A DNA stretch of 59,536 nucleotides, the filler included, from Asterionella formosa (Eukaryota), in the NCBI GenBank assembly GCA_002256025.1. It is 6 parts of 6 records of this genome, joined end to end, with 100 filler letters (N's around TTAATTAATTAA, not from the genome) between each part and the next. Parts side by side here need not be neighbours in the genome. Positions count along the whole stretch, not along the records: positions 1 to 9,862 come from NKIB01010141.1; 5 more parts are not named here. One strand, given 5' to 3'. Below the pieces are notes generated by a model. The model had not been told where the DNA came from. It did not search any database and saw only the letters and a program-made list of their open reading frames with translations. The position numbers and the translations under genes were made by a program. This document shows positions 1-49,719 of this stretch, piece by piece. How positions within the stretch are numbered: position 1 is the first letter of the stretch; every line of letters starts with the position of its first letter.

Positions 1-201
1 AAAAACCCATAATTCTATTAAAACTCTTAGGAACGATTACAATCGATCACGGAGACATCGTTGTTATATCTACAGCCTATTTGGTCCCTGACGTGTCCTT
101 ACAGGATACAAGAAAGCATAGAGTGCTTCGGGACGCAATTTCAACAACCGGTAGTTTGCTTCACAATAAAATTCTGTTGAAGATCAATCGATATCGCCAT
201 C

Positions 202-1592: not shown

Positions 1593-2906
1593 GAGGAATG
1601 TTTGATTGGGTTTATGACAAGATCTTGAGGATCAAGGCCCTTGCGAAAATCCCATAAAAATCTTCGTTGCAATACCTTTGCTGCTTACAAGCTGATCACG
1701 GCATCCGATCAGCCGAATAAGGGACCGTTGCTTTAGCTCACACATAGACCACCTGTTTCGTCCAACACATACGACTACGTACGCCCAAGGGGGCAACTAT
1801 TTTCATGCTTTCAGTCTTGTAAGGCTGGGAATCGAAGCCGATTCATATCCCGGCATCATTAATAAAACCGTATACCCAGTACCAGGTACCAACTACCGGT
1901 ATTTGCTGATTCTTGGCCTGGGTCGCTGTACGAGCGCTCGCTCATGATTACGAGAGAAGCAACAAGCAATAATCACATCGCTCTGCAGATGAGGCGGCCG
2001 GCTGATGGAAAAATTTTGGAACTCCGGGTGCCTTGTATACCTGGTTGTTTCGTTGCCGGGTTTGAACACCTTTCTTTTTTAGCAGTATGATCTTACGTAT
2101 GACCATACATTTCATCAGGATCATCAATCCTTGTCATTCTATTGATTATTAATAGCCCTGTAATACATGATTGAATATGTTGACAAAAATCAAAATCAGA
2201 TCACTGAAACTCTTCACTGTGTCCGACATTTGTAGTACTAGACGAAATTCCGAAAAGTCTGTGTGACTTCTCATCATTCCAGCAATGAGATTCATCATTG
2301 TTCTAAAGATTTGATTTATCACATTATAATAGTGCCTTGCCTCTGTAATATTACAGCAAGCTAAGGACTAGTTATTTCTGTACTACATAGACCTATTTTG
2401 GTATGTTGTACTAGCTTTCCTAGTATGGTGCGTGAATTCTGGTAGTATACCTGCCTCGTTCCAGTCTTGGAATATTATGTGGCCCTTGATTTGTTGGCCT
2501 TGAATTGTTGGGTATTTACGGTCAAGGTTCAGCATTACCCAGGTTTTATTGAGAATATCCAGAACAAGGTCCACAGCATGAGGAAATAATGTGTCCTTTT
2601 CTACCTACAACAAAGCTGGGAACAATCATGGAATGCTTCAGATCTAATTTTTTAGATTATTTCAGACATACCTACAAAAGCTCCCTCTCGATAGCCGTCC
2701 AAAATAGTGATGAAAACCAATAAAAGAAACAGCCATATAGTATAATCACAAAAGTATTTCAAATGACAAACTCTCTAGACACACATATTGGTTGCCGACA
2801 CAAAGAGCTTAGCCAGCTGTTGGGTTGCATAGTGTTTTGTTTTGCTACATGAAGGTTGGGATAATGGAGGTTGTTGGAGAGCAGACAGAATTGAATGTTC
2901 AGTAGT

Positions 2907-3981
2907 TTAGCAGCAATTCTTTCTTGGCTGAGCTGAGGCTCCATTCTTGAGGTTCAGTCCTTGTTTTCCAGCAGAAGGTCCTCCCTGTCCATCCGCAATA
3001 AGTCTGTCCTTGACAGAACGAGCGATGGCATAGAAACCGTCTCCTACGTTGATATCATTCTTGGCAGAGCACTCGAAGAACTCAATACCAAACTCCTTGG
3101 CGAGTTTCTGTGCCTCTTCTGTACTCACAACCTTCTCGTCCAACATATCACACTTGTTTCCGACAAGAATCTTATTGACATGAACATCAGCATGTTGCTG
3201 GATTTGAGAGATCCAGTTGCGAATAGATTCGAACGAACGGCGATCTGTGACATCGTACACGAGGAGGATTCCCTGGGCACCGCGGAAGTACGAGGTGGTA
3301 ATGGTACGGAAGCGCTCCTGACCAGCCGTGTCCCAAATTTGGAGCTTGATGCGAGTGCCATCAATATCGACGTTCTTGATCTTGAAATCGATTCCAATCG
3401 TAGTCTATAAAAATTCAAAAGAGGGAGAGTAAAGTGTGTGAGAACGCAATGAAGTGGAGTAATAGAGAGTCACACGCCACGAAGAAAACATCTCTGAACC
3501 AACTCCACAACCAATTAGTAAGTCATTCGCGACTAACTTGTTCCCTAAGAAGTAACATCTGCCCCTTCTGAGGGCTAATAACTTTGAATATAGCAGCAGA
3601 ATCAACAGCAAAAAATGTAGAAGAAACAGTTCGTCCCAAGACTATTCTGCGGCGCGGTCTAAGTGGTCATAGCTGCATCAAAAATTGTGTATGCAATGTT
3701 AAACTCTCCACGGCGCTTCGTCCCTCGCTGGAATGTTGACAACAACAAACTTACAATGACTGTAATCGATAAAAGAAGAGGAAAGGTGAGCAAAAAGGGC
3801 GCCACGAACGAATAATCAAAAACTGAATCAAAGCAGCAGCGGTTTCACCCTCGTTCTACTCACACGTAGGACTGAAACTATCATTCGCATAACGAAGAAG
3901 CAAGCAAGTCTTTCCGACTCCGGAATCTCCAATCATTAGCAGCTTGATCTGCATATCGTAGGGTGCGCCTCCTGATGCCAT
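2907..3981 (-). CDS. RAB8: Rab8/Sec4-family small GTPase, 3 exons (3981-3864, 3759-3755, 3404-2907), 206 aa
   Basis: Spliced translation [49 protein letters not shown]...WDTAGQERF...GNKCD...ECSAK...KNCC. Both introns are GT-AG, exon lengths sum to 621 nt, and the protein ends in a CC prenylation motif. Confidence 0.95.
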
Positions 3982-4833
3982 TGTAGAAGGATGATAACAA
4001 GAGAGAGGGGAAATGGAAGTGTGATGAATACGACGGGTGGGTCACCGAGTTCAGATTCTACAGTGATTTATCCCTATATGCAATACCAGTACATAGATTG
4101 TGCCGTTTGTGGTGCGATAAATGCCGCTACAGGCAGGAGCAGAACAAACCAACTCCTGTCCTGTAGAATTCCACACCAATTTATTCATCCATGCCTCGTC
4201 TATTTCTCGCAGCAGTCGCATTTCGAATACGAATGCACTACCCGTATGCAGCAGGCCCAACAATGATTATCCTCAACCCTCAACGGAACAGCCAACGGTT
4301 AGTCATTTCTGATAAGGCAGAGCGAATCATGGCATTTGCACGACCAGTACCAGTAGGTCTATGGTGGTACAATGTGGTGCAGCGACAATATGACGTCAGC
4401 AAGGAGTGCCTTAGTTACAAATTCATTACCGGTAGTGACCTATTTAACGGTATATGATACAAAATGTTCTTTGCAATATTTTATCAGTACAGGTATGTCA
4501 TCAACGGACCATAAGATGTATGCACCAGGTAGGCTACTGCCGTTGGCCAGTAAAAGATACATCTCTTAAATGAGTCTGATCGTGAACCTATGTAGCAAAC
4601 ATCATTACGGTAGTGGAGCAGTAGCACGGATTTCATACAAGGGTAGTCTGATGGTGCAAAAATTGGTTTCTCTAAGTAACAGTGGTGCAATCGGTGTTGC
4701 AATCGTCGTGCAAATGCGAATGGACAGTTTAATTAACAAATAGTTTTCTCATTTTTTCAACCCTGTTTGGGAAAAGTCCCGGTGTACATATCTACAAGCA
4801 CCCCGGAAGTTCAGACGCAAGTACGGTACTGTA

Positions 4834-9862: not shown

Positions 9863-9962
9863 NNNNNNNNNNNNNNNNNNNNNNNNNNNNNNNNNNNNNN
9901 NNNNNNTTAATTAATTAANNNNNNNNNNNNNNNNNNNNNNNNNNNNNNNNNNNNNNNNNNNN
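9863..9962. other. Artificial contig linker
   Basis: N44-TTAATTAATTAA-N44, with stop codons in all six frames. Confidence 0.98.
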
Positions 9963-19817: not shown

Positions 19818-19917
19818 NNNNNNNNNNNNNNNNNNNNNNNNNNNNNNNNNNNNNNNNNNNNTTAATTAATTAANNNNNNNNNNNNNNNNNNNNNNNNNNN
19901 NNNNNNNNNNNNNNNNN
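19818..19917. other. Artificial contig linker
   Basis: N44-TTAATTAATTAA-N44. Confidence 0.98.
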
Positions 19918-20824: not shown

Positions 20825-21469
20825 GATTCCGGAAGTCAGTGCAAGTGAGCAGTTGATTTAAAATATAGCACAATCAAAGAACAAATACAAATACAAATAC
20901 AAATACAAATGAATCAATAAGATATGATTGCAAGCTGCCTGCCAGGATCTTTTCGCTCCTTCAATATAAAGAACGTTTGAAATAGGATTTTTCAGCAGGT
21001 TCAAGCAGCTGCCACATGTTCTAAAATCTTTTCATCATCCGTTTCACTAATACATACCAGCTATAGGGTACGTTTAGCGTAGGGCATATTTATTATGAGC
21101 GACATGAAGATTCATCGGAGCGATCTGCAATAGCGTTCGTTACCTTGGATTCAGATTCATACAACAGTTTCAGAATGGCTCATTTGAGTACATATCTGTT
21201 CCTTCATGTCATTCCTAGAAAGTGTCGTCGAGCTCGTGTGGTATACCGGTATACAGTGAGGCTTTTAAAAATATAGGAGCATCATTGTGGCACCCCATTG
21301 AAACAGCTGACAAATTTCTTGATCGACCGGTATAGCCGACCGGTATACCAACCATGACAACGAGAACGAGAACAATAATAACGAGAACGAAAAAAACAAA
21401 AATAAGAAGGACTCTACAAATTCGAAATGGAGGGGAGGTGGCCTTTGCACAAATGCCTTTTTATATGCC

Positions 21470-24370
21470 ATGGACAAATTCAGAAGTACTACATTGGAAG
21501 AAAACGACAATGGCAACAACAACGACATGAGTTGGATGGACCTTTTGAACCTCATGCATCATGGGTTGCAACAAAATAAAGATCCACAGGATACTTATAC
21601 TACAACAACAACAACAATTGTTCCTCAATTGTCATCCAATCGACCACTCTCCATGACAGATGATAAATGTACCATTTTTGTTCCAACAGCAACAGCAACA
21701 GAATCATCATTGGGGACTAGACGAGCTTTGATGATCGGGATTCGATACAACAACAACAACAACAACAAGGAAGAATTTACCAACACGATTAGTCATCCTT
21801 CGAATGTAATAATCATGACTTCACATTTAGAAGAGCAATGGCAATTTCGACCCGAAAATATCATTGTCTTGATGGATGATGATGAACATGTCAATCCAAC
21901 AAGAAAGAATATTATAAATGCCATTAAATTATTGGTCAAACTAAGCAAGGCGGGTGATGTTGTTATGTTTTATTATTCTGGTCATGCCATTCAAAAACAA
22001 CAACAATCTGGATTGGAAAATACCAACAACAATCATAATCATCATGACAACGACGACGAGGAAACTGCCATTGTTCCAATGGATTCTGCAGAAGCGGGGT
22101 ACATTTATAATGATGAATTGCGACGGGAATTGGTGAATAATATGGATCCAAATGTACACGTGACTGTAGTATTGGATTGCTGTCACTCGAAATCATTATT
22201 ACTTCTGCCTTTTTCGTATACTACTGTTGCGCATGACATGCTGAAGAATGGTAAAGAGGAAACAACAACCACCACCACCACCACAGCTCGTATCAATACC
22301 TCGAAAGCGTTTGCAGCCACCATCAGCAAAGTCGCAGATTTTGCAGACCAAGGACAAACAAAAAATGGTTTGGAATTGAAAAAAATCATGGACAAGAAAA
22401 GCATGATTTCCATTATTAATGCTCATGTCAACGTAATTATTATTGATTGCCATGATGACCACCGAAGTATTGATAAAAAGGATGGAGATGTTACAAATGG
22501 ATTAATATTGACAGTCAAGGACGCTCTTAATCAAGGTGAAATTTTGACAAACGTCAAGTTGCTATTGAACATGAAGAAGAACCTTGTAAAGCTAGGTTCT
22601 CAGCATCTTTGGCCAAAATTGATTTCATCACGTCCCATTGATATGTACGAAGATTATAAGATCGTTTCGAATTCTGGAATCAATCGTGCATTACTGATTG
22701 GAATCAATTACAGCCATTCCATGACAATGGCAACTCTCAAGAATTATCATGGCAATTGCTTGATGGTCCGGGATTTTCTTCAGGAGGATTTGGGATTTTG
22801 GGAACATCATTGTTACATTTTGATGGACGATGGGATTCATGAAGAACCAACCAAAGAAAATATCTTTGCTGCAATGGGAGTGATTACGAAAGAGTGCCAA
22901 CCGGGGGACTCTGTCTTTTTCTACTTTGGAGGACATGGGGGAACAATAACAGGTACAAATCATGGCGATCAACATGACTTTACTGGTAACCTGATTTTTC
23001 CTTGTGACACAGATACGGCAGGCATTATCAAGGACGGCGAGCTTTATACATATTTGGTCGGTGACATGAAAGCTGGAGTCAAGTTGACGGCTTTAATGGA
23101 TTGCACTTATTCCGGAACACTCTGGAACTTACCTTTTCAATTGAATGCTAATGATGACGAAGTAAAGAAATACATTCCAGCATTGATCCTATTGATTTCA
23201 GGACGTATGAACGAAGACAACAATAGTGGAAACAACTTTGGTGGTCTTTGCACCAAAGCATTTCTTGCGGCGCTGACGTTGTCAGGTTCCGAAAGGACAT
23301 GGGATCAATTGTTAATGCATATGAGAACCAGTATGTTACACTTACTCGCCCAACCTGTAAACCAACAACACCCCAGACAGCTTCCGCAACTGACCTCGAG
23401 CCGTATCATTCATCCTGACCAACGAGCCGAGATTTTCCCTCCTAATTGCAGTGGGAAAAAGCGTGCTTTGTTCATAGGTATAAACTACACAAGCAAGGGC
23501 GAGTCGATTGAGGAACTAGATTCATGCCACATGGATGTCAAGAAGCTCAAGCAATACTTACAAGATGTGCACGGCCTTCAAGATGATCATTGCCTGGTTT
23601 TGCTCGATGATGACAAGGAAATGATTCCAACTTGTAAAAATATTATCAGGGCAATACGCAATATTGTAAATCTATCCAAGAGGGGAGACTATCTTTTTAT
23701 TCATTACTGTGGACATGGCGGAGTTTACACGACTGATGGCAAATTCAAAGAATGCCTTGTACCCATCGACTTTGATACCGCCGGATTGATCGAAGCTGAC
23801 ACATTATATACGGAGATTGTCAGCTCGTTATTGGATGGTGTCACTCTTACTTGCTTATTCGATTGCTGTTATTCCGACACAATACTGGACTTGCCTTGTC
23901 GTTTTGGTGTTGAAATACGGAAAGATGAGCAGCCTATCGTTCAACGCAGAGCTTCATTGCAGACTTTAACGAATTTCGTTGTTACTTCTTTGCTGGGAAA
24001 GAAAGGCCCGCGTAAAGGCTCTAATGGAAGTCTAGCAGCGTGGTGTGAAGCATTTAATCTGCAAGAGGAGGAAGTTTCTACCGCACAACGACTCGGCTCC
24101 AAGTTACGTAACAAGAGCACAGCACAGCGAAGTAGCTCTTCACGACTTAACCTACAAGACGAGGAAGTTGACACAGCGCGACGAAATAGTTCAACAATGA
24201 AGAATAATCAAAACAAAGAAATTCCTGTACTACAACCAAGCAGCTCATTAGGACTTAACCTGCAAAATGAGCAAGCTCCAACAGTGCAACGGCGAAGTTT
24301 GTCAATAGGAAACGAGGAAGTGTCCTTGGTGCAAAGGAGCAGCTCTACAAGACTTGACCCGCAAGACTAG
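21470..24370 (+). CDS. Multi-domain metacaspase (peptidase C14) with three p10-p20 units; the true start is probably upstream
   Basis: Three RAL.IGI.Y starts and three His/Cys dyads: YSGHA/DCCHS, FGGHG/DCTYSG and YCGHG/DCCYS. p10-type GGLCT.AFL and PQL.SS.P motifs precede the p20 domains. The frame is open from 21323. Confidence 0.9.
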   Translation: MDKFRSTTLEENDNGNNNDMSWMDLLNLMHHGLQQNKDPQDTYTTTTTTIVPQLSSNRPLSMTDDKCTIFVPTATATESSLGTRRALMIGIRYNNNNNNKEEFTNTISHPSNVIIMTSHLEEQWQFRPENIIVLMDDDEHVNPTRKNIINAIKLLVKLSKAGDVVMFYYSGHAIQKQQQSGLENTNNNHNHHDNDDEETAIVPMDSAEAGYIYNDELRRELVNNMDPNVHVTVVLDCCHSKSLLLLPFSYTTVAHDMLKNGKEETTTTTTTTARINTSKAFAATISKVADFADQGQTKNGLELKKIMDKKSMISIINAHVNVIIIDCHDDHRSIDKKDGDVTNGLILTVKDALNQGEILTNVKLLLNMKKNLVKLGSQHLWPKLISSRPIDMYEDYKIVSNSGINRALLIGINYSHSMTMATLKNYHGNCLMVRDFLQEDLGFWEHHCYILMDDGIHEEPTKENIFAAMGVITKECQPGDSVFFYFGGHGGTITGTNHGDQHDFTGNLIFPCDTDTAGIIKDGELYTYLVGDMKAGVKLTALMDCTYSGTLWNLPFQLNANDDEVKKYIPALILLISGRMNEDNNSGNNFGGLCTKAFLAALTLSGSERTWDQLLMHMRTSMLHLLAQPVNQQHPRQLPQLTSSRIIHPDQRAEIFPPNCSGKKRALFIGINYTSKGESIEELDSCHMDVKKLKQYLQDVHGLQDDHCLVLLDDDKEMIPTCKNIIRAIRNIVNLSKRGDYLFIHYCGHGGVYTTDGKFKECLVPIDFDTAGLIEADTLYTEIVSSLLDGVTLTCLFDCCYSDTILDLPCRFGVEIRKDEQPIVQRRASLQTLTNFVVTSLLGKKGPRKGSNGSLAAWCEAFNLQEEEVSTAQRLGSKLRNKSTAQRSSSSRLNLQDEEVDTARRNSSTMKNNQNKEIPVLQPSSSLGLNLQNEQAPTVQRRSLSIGNEEVSLVQRSSSTRLDPQD

Positions 24371-24660: not shown

Positions 24661-26952
24661 CTATTCATAGAGTAATGGATATTGCTCAGGTCCAAAGGGA
24701 ACTATGTTCAAGCTATTCAAGCTTCCGTTGCGGGGGGCGAGGGTATCAGCATTTCGCCTGTATATTTCTCCGTAGTTACCGACCGCGTTTATTATGTTGC
24801 TCAACATATTGCGATAAAGTGGCCCAAATAGAGTGGTTTGAGGCATAGTATTTGCAAGTTCTCGACCAATTCCTTCCTCTTCAGCGTAAAATGTCGAATA
24901 TACAATCCACCTGATAAAATTCGTAAACTCAGCATCGTCTTCTCTGTTTACAATGGCAAGAGCATTTTTTGAAAATCTGTTTTTCCCTATTTCATATTCG
25001 CCAGTGTATCCAGCAATGCGAACACTTGTTTCTGAAATATCCTGAGCGCTTCCGCCAATGGCATTGCATTTCTTGGAATTGAACGCGTCCACGGTATCAC
25101 GTCCAGGAAGTGTGGGTACAATTGCACTTTCGGGGAAAAGTTCTCGTGTCCGCGCAATTGTTGTGGTCCCATCATTCACACAAATCAATAGTTGAGTGCA
25201 ATTGGCAGACGAAACATCGATCCGATCTGCACAATCACCAAATGGAGGGATTCCACCAAAGCTGAGGCCATCATAAAATATAACAGGAGAAAAGCTGAAC
25301 CCAACCCCACCCGATGTGGGCTCTTTCCGATCCCGTTCTGGAGTTTTGCTAGTTACACCAGAAAGTACATCGACATCTCCATTGGCCAGTACCTTGAATC
25401 GTTCTGTTGCCGGCAATTCATGGTAGACAACATGACTGTCCACACCATCAAATATGGCAGCACTCAATGCCCGACAAAAATCAACATCAAATCCACTCCA
25501 TTCCCTTGTGGTTCGGTTAAAGTCAGCAAAACTGGCGCTCGCGGCAATACCGCAACGTACATGTCCTCGTCGTTTAATTTCCTGAATGGTACCAGCATGG
25601 GCTGGTGAGGGACCCACAATACCAAGAGTTCCATAGGGAAACGCATATAACAATCCAGAACTTCCATTATTGATGGTGTTCAAACTGCCTCTAGGGACAA
25701 TGCTTTCCAAGTGTCTCGAGTACATTTCACCATAGTTCCCTACTTCTGCAATCGCATTTTGAAACATTTCTGAATATTTGTATCCAAAGGCAGTCTGTGT
25801 AATGAATGTTTTGGCATCTTGCTGAGTAATCCCCTGCTCATCTGCAGCAATCAATGATTCCACGACCCAAAAGACAAAATCTGACCAAAATGGATCACCT
25901 TCTCTTGTAACAACAGATAGGGGTTCCTTGGAGTACTGATTAACACCTGTTTCATATGGTCCCGTGTATCCCTGCAATCGTACGACGGCTTCTGCAAATC
26001 CAGTCTGTTCTTCAGCAATGGCATTGCAATTCCCGTCAATCATGTTGATGTATAAATCGTTTGTAGATGATACTGGTAACACATTTTGTGATGGGAAGAG
26101 AGCCCGAACTACTTCAATGTGTGTAGTCCCCTGATTGACACAAATCAATAGGTTCAAACATTCACTTGATGTGGTATCAATCGCATCTGCACATGCGCCA
26201 AAGGGAGGAATACCACCAAAGCCTAAGCCATTGTACAAATATGGTGTAGTAAATTCGAATCCAGATTGCGAATTTGACTACGTGGTAGTGTTGTAGAAGT
26301 AGTAGTAGTAGTAGTAGAAGAGAAAAAAGAAGAACGCAGCAAAAAGAGAAAAATGTGTTTGAATGTGAGTACGACGACATCACCAATGCAAAACAACAAC
26401 AAATCGCCACTCCTCACAGTCACTTACTTCATATATATCTCGTTCCATCGTAAATGTTGTAACACGAGCAAGGACGTCCACTGTCTTGTCTAACAAATAA
26501 TTCCATCGTTCCGAAGCACTGCTAATGGGAATAAACTCGACCTTGCCATCCGAGGACGATGATCCAAAGATTGCAGCTGCAATCGCACGACATAGGTCAG
26601 CATCAAATCCGATTTGATTCCCCGTACCATCATCAACTGCAAATCCAGCTTGATTGCTTGGGACTCCACATTTGAGTAGACCTCGATTGATAATATCATT
26701 GAGAGTTGCTGAAGTGTTGAAAGCAAACGATGCTTCTGCTTCTGTGCTGGGAGAATTTGTTGCAGATGGTTGGTTCCAATTGTTATTATTATTATTGTTG
26801 TTGTTGTTGTTGTTGTTGTTCATCATCCCATTGTCGTAGTTGGCATTGGCATCTTTGAAGCCCAACACAGCAATGATCAAACTGATCAGTGCCAAGAGAA
26901 AGGTGAGAAGTAGCGCGACTTTCAATTCGCATTTGGGTTCGCCGCCGGCCAT
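24661..26952 (-). CDS. Membrane-anchored tandem AapJ/BztA-like amino-acid solute-binding protein; exons 26952-26428 and 26277-24661, 713 aa
   Basis: N-terminal TM helix and Asn-rich linker, then two copies of TL..I..RG...CG / GFD.D.CRA..AAIF / VDVL...T..T.ERD / SK..L....R..D / VGNYGE.Y.R. A phase-0 GTAAGT...TAG intron joins the two ORFs in frame. Confidence 0.88.
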
Positions 26953-27969
26953 TGTCAACAAAAGCAAAATGAATCGTCAAGCAACAAAAGGACAAGTCAA
27001 GGCTTGAAATTGATTACATAAAGTTAGAGTATACTTCTATCGTTGTATATATAGTCTATGGTATTTCTATTGTTAGTTATATGGGGGGCGGTGCTTGGTG
27101 TTGTTGTTGCTGTTGTGCTGCTACCGCCTGCGGACAGATGATTGATGAGAAAGGATAATAAATGCCTGTACTATGTGTCTATTTCCGCGTTTCATAAACC
27201 ATAGAAGTAGATGCACGACGTTCACAGCAAAACGGTATATAGAAAGAATTTTGTTGGCATCAGCTTTTAAATCTCATCAGCAAAATCACAAAGAACATAA
27301 ATATATCATAATGATTCTTTTCTATTGGTACATACCCGGTATGTAAGAAGTATATAAATGTATATCGTATATATGACTGCATGACGGCATAAATGATTCA
27401 TTTATTTAAGCACATGTAAATATTTTAATCATGGAATATGGCTGGTGCGTAGATACAAAATTGACCGGGTTGTACTATGCTATATATATACAAAACATTT
27501 ATCGTTGACAGTCCTGATTTGTTGTATCAACCTATGTAAATGTGTAAAATCCGATATATACCGGTTTCATACACACTCATCATAGACATGGAATATGTGT
27601 CCTTCGAAGGGTTCGGATTTGTGGTTTTCTATTTATTATTCGTGTATAAATAGATATTCTGAAATATTCTCAGCTATATTTCTAACATGACACAAATAGC
27701 AGTGGTCCAAACATTTAACGAATACCTGGTCCCGATATAATCCTACCAGGTAATGCAGTACCGGTACGGTACTACCGGTAAGTGGTTTGGACCAGTACCC
27801 CGGAGCAGTGCCAATTGCCTATCAGCCATGAACATGCCAAGATGAACTCAATTTAATTTCTTTCACTTTATCATACCTCTCTATCTTCACATTGTAGTTT
27901 ATACTGTATGTCATTTTTCAGTCTATCGATCTATTTTGCAATGTCAAATTTCCCTCATCATCCTTGCCA

Positions 27970-29752: not shown

Positions 29753-29852
29753 NNNNNNNNNNNNNNNNNNNNNNNNNNNNNNNNNNNNNNNNNNNNTTAA
29801 TTAATTAANNNNNNNNNNNNNNNNNNNNNNNNNNNNNNNNNNNNNNNNNNNN
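29753..29852. other. Artificial contig linker
   Basis: N44-TTAATTAATTAA-N44. Confidence 0.98.
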
Positions 29853-38043: not shown

Positions 38044-39687
38044 ATGAGTGAAGCAAAGAAGGCTGGAACAGTCCTGGAGTCAGTCAAGGTCATTCCTTTT
38101 TATGGAACTGACACTACAAAGGGGGGAGTTGAACCCCGAGAATTTTTTCAAGAAGGCTGAGGTATTTGCTGCAACAAAGGGTTTCAAGAAGGTGTTACTC
38201 GAAGAAGTAGTTCTTCCAAGTTGGGCAGAGAAAGAAGATTTGACAAAAGAAGAGATGTAGTTGGTGAGACAAGATGATGAAGCAAAGCATTTTCTTATTA
38301 TGTCATGCAGAGGTGATGCTTTTGCAATCATTGAATCATATGAAACAGCATACCAAATGTTTCAAGCTCTCAAAGACCGGTACAACTCAAAGAAGACAAA
38401 AGATTTGGAAAAAGCAACAACCAAGCTTGAAAAGTGTTACATGAAATCAGACATAGATGATCCCTACCTTTGGATTGTCGAAATGGAACGATTGAACAGA
38501 GAAGTGGAAAAGTGCGAAAATGGATCAAGACGCAGTGAAGAGCAAATGCAAGCAACTATATTAGCAAGACTACCAAAACGAAGATATGAATCAGTAATTA
38601 CATCTCTAAATGGAAAGATTGGTACAAAAGGATTTGACAATAAGGACTTCATTGCTGAGATCATTGGCTGGCCATTATGAGATGTTTGTGGAGCCATTCA
38701 AAAATCGTCAAAATCGCAAAAATCAAGATCAAAGAGAGAACAAGGAAAGAGGAAAGCATCTGGCTCTGAATACTACAAGTTGAAAAGGTGCCTAGAGAAC
38801 CTTTAAAGGTAAATGCAACAAGTGTGGAAGACAAGGCCACAGAGCAAGAGACTGCAGAAGCACTGGCAACAGCAACAACAGTGGAGAGAAAGACATTGAA
38901 AGACCGAAGGTGAAGTGCTGCAGCTGCAATGGATTTTGACACATTGCAAGAGATTGTCCAAAGAAGGAAGAGTCTGGTATGTTTGTTGGTATGACAATCC
39001 GTGGAGCTGATATCCGGGAGGATGATGTCAAGAAGAATCAAGATGCTAAATCAGAGTATTTTGACAAAAATAAATTTGCAATTGAACTTTTGCAAGAAAT
39101 TGCAGACTACAACAGGAAGAAGAGAAGTGTCTTGAAAGACATAAGAGAAATTAAGTGGAAACCAAGAAAATACAACAAGTTCCAACAAGTGATAAGCCAA
39201 AAGAAGAAAGTAGAGAAAAAGACCATGAGCTGGGCTGATATGTGTGAGACAAGTGATGAGGAGGAATATGACAATGTCGACGAAAATGAGAACAGAGGAA
39301 TTGTTGATGAGAAAGAAATTATTTACCAGATGGAGAAAACAAGCCATGGAGCAGAATGGATGTGGGATGAGGAAGTTTTTGCTACAAATTCATTGAAAAC
39401 CATGAGCCCTGTCACAGAGAGTGGACATGAAAGCTGGCTTGTTGACTCAGGGGCAACAACTCATGTGTCCATCAACACTATAAAAATGAGTAATTTGCAG
39501 ACTGCAACTGAAGGTGAGCATGTGAGTGTTGGAAGCAATGAAACCCTTAAGGCAACAGCGATTGGTGATTTAACTCTGGAGCAGAAGGACACATAGAAAA
39601 CACTGAAATTGGAAAAAGTGATGGTTGTTCCCGGTTTTGCTCGAAATTTGATAAGTGTTGGCAGGTTGACAGAGAAAGGAAACCAAT
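38044..39687 (+). mobile_element. Degenerate Ty1/Copia gag-protease region, cut by the contig edge
   Basis: Gag-like AKHFLIMSCRGDAFAII...AYQMFQALKDRY, CCHC knuckles at about 38815-38960, and protease WLVDSGATTHV. Several stops and frameshifts. Confidence 0.9.
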
Positions 39688-39787
39688 NNNNNNNNNNNNN
39701 NNNNNNNNNNNNNNNNNNNNNNNNNNNNNNNTTAATTAATTAANNNNNNNNNNNNNNNNNNNNNNNNNNNNNNNNNNNNNNNNNNNN
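39688..39787. other. Artificial contig linker
   Basis: N44-TTAATTAATTAA-N44. Confidence 0.98.
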
Positions 39788-49619: not shown

Positions 49620-49719
49620 NNNNNNNNNNNNNNNNNNNNNNNNNNNNNNNNNNNNNNNNNNNNTTAATTAATTAANNNNNNNNNNNNNNNNNNNNNNNNN
49701 NNNNNNNNNNNNNNNNNNN
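49620..49719. other. Artificial contig linker
   Basis: N44-TTAATTAATTAA-N44. Confidence 0.98.

Follow-up and report, generated by a model that had tools for sequence, protein, structure and literature searches.

Gene structure at the locus

The window, by which we mean the whole 59,536-nt stretch of Asterionella formosa DNA that was analysed (filler included), carries on its minus strand a gene for a Rab8-like small GTPase that runs from an ATG at 3981 to a TAA at 2909..2907. Its coding sequence is read here as two longer exons and, between them, a micro-exon made up of the letters TCATT (Table 1). Exon 1 encodes the P-loop GDSGVGKT and its coding part ends in AGT CCT ACG T at 3864. The letters GTGAGT follow directly (3863..3858), and the frame that reads through them stops two codons further on (ORF 3856..4041). 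On the 5' side RNA contigs cover 3864..4050 and continue past 4050, giving a 5' UTR of at least 69 nt. Ahead of the micro-exon lies a branch-like CTCAC at 3790..3786 (within GCTCAC, 3791..3786), whose A is 27 nt ahead of the acceptor G of intron 1, and pyrimidines make up 82% of positions -25..-4 before this acceptor. TCATT itself is preceded by TACAG and followed by GTAAGT (3754..3749), which agrees at all six intron positions with what we take as the donor consensus. Intron 2 has a branch-like CTCAC of its own at 3442..3438, whose A lies 34 nt ahead of the acceptor G, and after its terminal TTTTTATAG the last exon opens at 3404 with ACT ACG ATT GGA ATC GAT TTC AAG. An exon of 5 nt, well within the limit of 15 nt for an ultra-short micro-exon, is thus flanked by canonical GT-AG introns on both sides. 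The donor, the GCTCAC, the pyrimidine tract, TACAG, TCATT and GTAAGT, all of which the first-pass annotation had described, were each found on the minus strand at the positions it gave.

Table 1. Coordinates of the Rab8-like gene and of further features, counted along the whole window
Feature	Position	Strand	Length	Description
Exon 1, coding part	3864..3981	-	118 nt	Codons 1-39 and base T of codon 40; ATG at 3981..3979
Intron 1	3760..3863	-	104 nt	GTGAGT...ACAG
Micro-exon TCATT	3755..3759	-	5 nt	Bases 2-3 of codon 40 (Phe) and the whole of codon 41 (Ile)
Intron 2	3405..3754	-	350 nt	GTAAGT...TTTTTATAG (ATAG end)
Last exon, coding part	2907..3404	-	498 nt	165 codons and stop TAA; TTIGIDFK...KNCC
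Open frame, Peptidase_C14	21323..24367	+	1015 codons	E 1.3e-45 (three matched stretches)
Adjoining open frames, SBP_bac_3	24664..26277 and 26383..26976	-		Bacterial-type solute-binding domain in each
Open frame, retrotransposon Pol beta-barrel	38940..39593	+		PF22936, E 1.1e-07; reaches into an N stretch
N runs	9863..9962, 19818..19917, 29753..29852, 39688..39787, 49620..49719			Five pairs of 44 bases (440 N)

Elsewhere the window has long open reading frames and the look of eukaryotic nuclear DNA that is poor in introns. The Peptidase_C14 frame encodes a large metacaspase-like protein, and the frame with the retrotransposon domain is probably a fragment of a mobile element. The two adjoining SBP_bac_3 frames, which are about 105 nt apart, may belong to a single gene that is interrupted by an intron about as long as intron 1 of the Rab gene. 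The N runs recur about every 9.9 kb and are filler between the joined parts.

Reading frame and chance occurrence of the motif

We joined the coding segments of 118, 5 and 498 nt by their coordinates with a script and obtained an open frame of 206 codons, ending in KNCC and a stop. The join without TCATT shifted the frame and met a stop after 14 further codons. TCATT is thus coding, and it is required both for the frame and for a conserved motif. This bears out what had been read from the letters beforehand, namely that exactly 5 nt are missing from the conserved stretch, that TCATT supplies its F-I and restores the frame, and that skipping it causes a frameshift.

For an estimate of chance, the pattern AG-TYATH-GT was counted on both strands of the 59.5-kb window and compared with shuffles. 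It occurs 6 times where 3.1 occurrences are expected, and by our arithmetic the expectation for one strand of the 459-nt gap between exon 1 and the last exon is about 0.012. We also listed every mini-exon in the gap of the form AG, N(2..35, 2 mod 3, no stop), GT. Of the 13 candidates TCATT alone gives the conserved F-I, and the other frame-keeping mini-exons of 2-35 nt were rejected.

Identity of the gene product

The last exon encodes most of a Ras-family domain: searched on its own against Pfam, it matched PF00071 (Ras) with an E of 5.6e-52 over profile positions 30-161 of 162, which places the product among the G domains of the Ras superfamily, and the missing first 29 profile positions are supplied by exon 1 and the micro-exon. 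The C-terminal CC of KNCC is a double-cysteine prenylation motif, and the joined translation also shows SAK and further stretches that we take to be GTPase motifs. The full product has no identical counterpart in a collection of 5.8 billion proteins, where the best full-length match is 89% identical and the present locus and its closest relatives are represented only by ORF fragments (P0001, P0002, P0121 and P0129). The closest named proteins come from the raphid pennate diatoms Seminavis robusta, Cylindrotheca closterium and Epithemia, and the JGI name for the relatives is 'Ras-related protein Rab-8A'.

For comparison with solved structures we used a stand-in, the full-length relative P0005 (83% identity over the last exon, with an N-terminal part that is nearly identical). 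Human Rab8A was its best match (5szi_A, E 6.2e-71), followed by Sec4 (4.8e-68), Rab10 (8.5e-67) and Rab1A (2.7e-65). By way of this stand-in the F-I encoded across the micro-exon aligns to the F-I of Rab8A (stfistigidfk). We take the stretch that bears F-I to be switch I, in which the threonine two residues further on presumably coordinates the magnesium ion. Judged from its sequence, the product would be a Rab8/Sec4-type (Rab8-like) GTPase, with Rab1 and Rab10 scoring only slightly lower for P0005. In this it would resemble human Rab8A and yeast Sec4 (PDB 5szi, 4lhx, 3cph), with which it shares the F-I.

Spliced and half-spliced RNA

Among 22 listed public runs, 20 contain the segment 2850..4050, and 18 of those 20 are on record as RNA; the runs that carry it are mostly lake and freshwater metatranscriptomes. 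We aligned four runs, X1 and X5 (both of study P1), X6 (P3) and X7 (P4), in each case as Logan contigs of RNA libraries; X5 and X7 are PolyA libraries. Such contigs drop rare variants and carry one depth each, so that the depths below are rough ratios only, from which a level of inclusion is not readable.

In X1, X5 and X6, that is, in three of the four runs and in two studies, contigs joined 3404->3864, skipping 459 nt, with AATGA (TCATT on the plus strand) between the two borders. These fully spliced contigs had depths of 1571 (X1), 2355 (X5) and 96 (X6) and ranked at or near the top at the locus. The junction of exon 1, TCATT and last exon, which had been proposed as the check on the micro-exon, is therefore present in RNA. 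A second joint, 3759->3864, skips 104 nt and marks RNA from which intron 1 had been removed and in which intron 2 was kept. It was found in X5, X6 and X7 (again three of the four runs, here from three studies) at depths of 47.7, 3.3 and 393 respectively, on contigs that extend from the last exon or from intron 2 as far as 3759 and resume at 3864. The fully spliced contigs had no other letters than the locus over 2850..3404, 3' UTR included, in X1 and X5 and one in X6, and the half-spliced contigs had 0-1 over 298-556 nt, intron 2 included. Such agreement over up to 556 nt of intron and 3' UTR shows that the contigs come from the present locus and not from another Rab gene.

Two further forms were looked for. 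A join 3404->3864 without the five letters was absent from the contigs of all four runs, contigs being a kind of data that drops rare variants, and so was the reverse intermediate, 3404->3755, in which intron 2 would be out and intron 1 kept. X7 yielded no fully spliced joint, and its sole contig across the border at 3404 continues into intron 2. One contig of X1, covering 3455..3893 at a depth of 95, is unspliced and might represent pre-mRNA or else DNA carried along in the library. The bin 3793..3833, a part of intron 1, had no cover in X5, X6 and X7; we did not count this as evidence because the same contigs join across the bin.

Some alignments at the locus concern other sequences. Short RNA contigs of X1 and X5 match 31-48 nt within 3304..3351, which codes for WDTAGQE, at 95-99% and then diverge; they are other Rab genes or other organisms with the same conserved segment and not isoforms. 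A joint 3167->3382 (depth 5.9, side 20) was rejected as foreign or chimeric on account of its non-canonical ends (AA..TC), its occurrence in the single run X5 and its low depth.

A trace of the half-spliced RNA was also found among proteins. A protein search with the peptide of exon 1 returned P0129, a protein of 63 aa from JGI (2 contigs, the longest 1452 nt), which was also the only match when the window ORF across the micro-exon was used as the query. It reads SPTFI and then continues for 31 residues, VSLLLS...AAMTT. These 31 residues are intron 2 of the window translated in that frame, and P0129 is thus the translation of half-spliced RNA in an independent collection.

We also asked what intron 2 itself might hold. 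Rfam gave no match at E up to 1 over 2700..4300, the fold of the intron was not unusual (z-score -0.28), and its sense strand had neither a C box (one mismatch allowed) nor a D box. On these results we rejected a hidden RNA gene in intron 2, which looks like an ordinary intron.

Relatives and origin of the two introns

To find close relatives we read 34 of the 120 top-ranking homologues that the last exon brought up. P0001 and P0002, which are 96% and 95% identical, begin with unrelated text ending in Q and then pass directly into TTIGIDFK, and their cluster mates P0148, P0150, P0153 and P0154 have the same run-in from Q to TTIGIDFK. These six ORF calls have at least four different upstream texts, which suggests that several close relatives or haplotypes have a CAG acceptor exactly where intron 2 ends in the present gene. 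At the other border, P0121 (64 aa) reads MSSGSAPYD...SFSPT and then CE..., as would be expected if a T|GTGAG donor stood exactly where intron 1 has its own. P0121 and P0153 both have a longest contig of 5862 nt and come from the same sources, which suggests, without proving it, that the two borders lie on one contig. With both outer borders in relatives, 2 (mod 3) bases are needed from between them. Read from ORFs that run through the outer borders, the micro-exon structure thus appears to be common to a few very close relatives (95-96% in the last exon).

Distant loci were taken from one metagenome scan, as the best 80 of 222 stretches that encode a relative (69-90% identical). All 80 have the same motif, with minor substitutions just upstream, and in all 80 the conserved stretch is unbroken at both micro-exon borders. 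The loci on contigs of at least 5 kb, 24 of the 80, are genomic by this measure of length. The frame is open from the start Met in 64, and the other 16 are interrupted elsewhere in the N-terminal part, none of them at the micro-exon borders: before GVGK in ten (L011, L025, L040, L053, L058, L059, L069, L070, L078 and L080), before LLMIGD in two (L045 and L046) and before APYDMQ in four (L075-L077 and L079). Evidently, intron positions are variable among diatom Rab8 genes. Furthermore, in the lineage of P0004 and P0172, with 84% identity over the last exon, a different intron lies 8 nt upstream of the intron 1 site. It falls inside the Ser codon of NDSF|SPTFITT, and P0172 translates it in frame as 37 residues. 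Introns have thus struck this small part of Rab8 independently in different lineages.

The outer borders shared with close relatives and the uninterrupted stretch in all 80 distant loci together point to a recent origin, a conclusion that is drawn by parsimony across unplaced metagenome loci and not from a tree. Most likely, both introns that flank TCATT were gained, five bases apart, in a recent ancestor of a small clade. An origin from introners or by tandem duplication found no support within the window. The two introns are unlike each other and neither recurs there: a blastn search with each of them (word 7, E up to 10) returned only self-matches and chance matches of at most 32 nt.

Order of intron removal and alternative readings

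We are highly confident that TCATT is a real internal coding exon of 5 nt, carried in the main transcript of a freshwater diatom's nuclear gene for a Rab8-like small GTPase, and the RNA contigs support its reading as a constitutive micro-exon. Removal of its two introns is most likely sequential and begins with the upstream one. Intron 1, which is short, would be spliced out at the outset, welding TCATT onto exon 1, and the GTAAGT behind TCATT would then serve as the donor of an exon of normal size (123 nt) for the removal of intron 2. Such an order would spare a 5-nt exon from having to accommodate splicing complexes at both of its ends simultaneously. The half-spliced forms observed in three runs are what this order would leave behind; the order and its steric reason are the part that we infer.

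The five letters might derive from an uninterrupted Rab8 gene elsewhere, in a second copy or in a different organism, the locus itself being a pseudogene or spliced in some other way. Rab8 is highly conserved, the runs are metatranscriptomes with many diatoms, and several short contigs of other Rabs do align at 3304..3351 with 95-99% identity, all of which would favour such a mix-up. However, related species differ at many synonymous sites here, whereas the junction contigs match the locus letter for letter over 2850..3404 in X1 and X5, and with a single difference in X6, into the 3' UTR. Moreover, the half-spliced contigs link the intron 2 of this very locus through TCATT to exon 1, and the idea is essentially refuted; we consider it next to impossible. 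The first-pass annotation had left undecided whether the exon is constitutive or an on/off switch in the effector loop. As a switch, conditional skipping of TCATT would frameshift the message and shut off the production of Rab8. This could work in principle, since the skipped form stops after 14 codons, and rare or unstable isoforms could escape contigs. Yet transcripts without TCATT, which would have spoken against the micro-exon altogether, did not appear among the contigs of the four runs, against inclusion in three of them, in contigs that rank as the deepest or nearly so at the locus, and the splice sites on both sides look strong (GTAAGT, 82% pyrimidine, CTCAC). Animal micro-exons that are regulated and tune proteins typically have a length that is a multiple of three. 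At 5 nt, and with the skipped form in none of the four runs, TCATT does not belong with these neuronal-type exons. Of the two possibilities the constitutive one is supported, and the switch, for which the contigs gave no support, is very unlikely.

Regulation might instead act on intron 2, with TCATT included constitutively and the completion of a detained intron tuning the output of Rab8. The kept form occurs in three of the four runs, both PolyA libraries among them, it is the sole form assembled across the border in X7, and P0129 records it in another collection. In plants, introns beside micro-exons are detained more often than others, according to the excerpts of Yu et al. (PMC8831610). 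On the other side, the rough depths of the kept form come to a few percent of those of the spliced form (47.7 against 2355 in X5, 3.3 against 96 in X6), a low ratio that fits the ordinary slow splicing of a longer intron, and intron 2 has no Rfam family, unusual fold or snoRNA boxes. We regard a regulated detained intron as quite unlikely. A more far-reaching scheme would combine a young exon, born of two gains in one small freshwater clade, with an obligatory upstream-first order and a detained intron of 350 nt that gates the amount of functional Rab8; as a whole, it seems unlikely to us. The constitutive micro-exon with sequential removal of its introns remains our preferred reading.

Comparison with known systems

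Most described ultra-short exons are ancient. The present locus offers a compact natural case of how a micro-exon is born, and also of an intron-definition spliceosome that faces two splice sites five bases apart. It matters for annotation as well: if the five bases are ignored, an essential trafficking GTPase is annotated as a fragment of 53 residues or is split in two. The proposed order of splicing has a parallel in recursive splicing (Drosophila Ubx, long vertebrate introns), in which juxtaposed 3' and 5' sites form a zero-length exon and very long introns are removed. As there, the upstream segment would be spliced to an internal acceptor and the adjoining donor used next, and the intermediate form matches. 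Unlike in recursive splicing, the mRNA retains five coding bases, and both introns are short.

The nearest comparison is with plants. Yu et al. (2022, PMC8831610) report 2,398 micro-exons of 1-15 nt in ten species and, in rice, an unannotated 5-nt micro-exon that was validated by RT-PCR. As far as the excerpts of that study go, the diatom exon resembles these in its size class, its GT-AG flanks, its inclusion in the major transcript, the need for it in the frame and the frequent lack of annotation, and probably also in that the flanking introns tend to be removed one by one and to be kept in polyadenylated RNA. The same excerpts explain the sequential removal of introns around micro-exons by a clash of complexes. 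The host is different here, being a diatom, and so is the gene, which is intron-poor. Furthermore, the excerpts describe the upstream intron of plant micro-exons as the one more often detained (PMC8831610), whereas the intron kept here is the downstream one, which is also the longer, with the caveat that contigs cannot rank the forms. The half-spliced RNA speaks for removal of the upstream intron first, the reverse of the tendency that those parts of the plant study describe (PMC8831610).

A still shorter plant exon is the constitutive single-nucleotide exon of Arabidopsis APC11 (Guo and Liu 2015, PMC4674806), which the excerpts of that paper describe as mis-annotated in databases. TCATT is like it in being essential for the frame, apparently constitutive and far too small for its two splice sites to be recognised jointly. 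It differs in having 5 nt in place of 1 nt and in the kind of evidence, which consists of environmental RNA contigs here and of reporter constructs in the excerpts on APC11 (PMC4674806). Full-text searches for micro-exons in diatoms or stramenopiles gave nothing relevant, judged by titles, and for the combination of micro-exon, Rab and switch I the matches listed were all animal or medical by title. That ultra-short, constitutive and frame-critical exons exist and are widely missed by annotation is, on the parts of the two plant papers that we draw on (PMC8831610, PMC4674806), already well documented. What is of moderate interest in the diatom gene is the apparently recent birth of such an exon together with a visible intermediate of its splicing.
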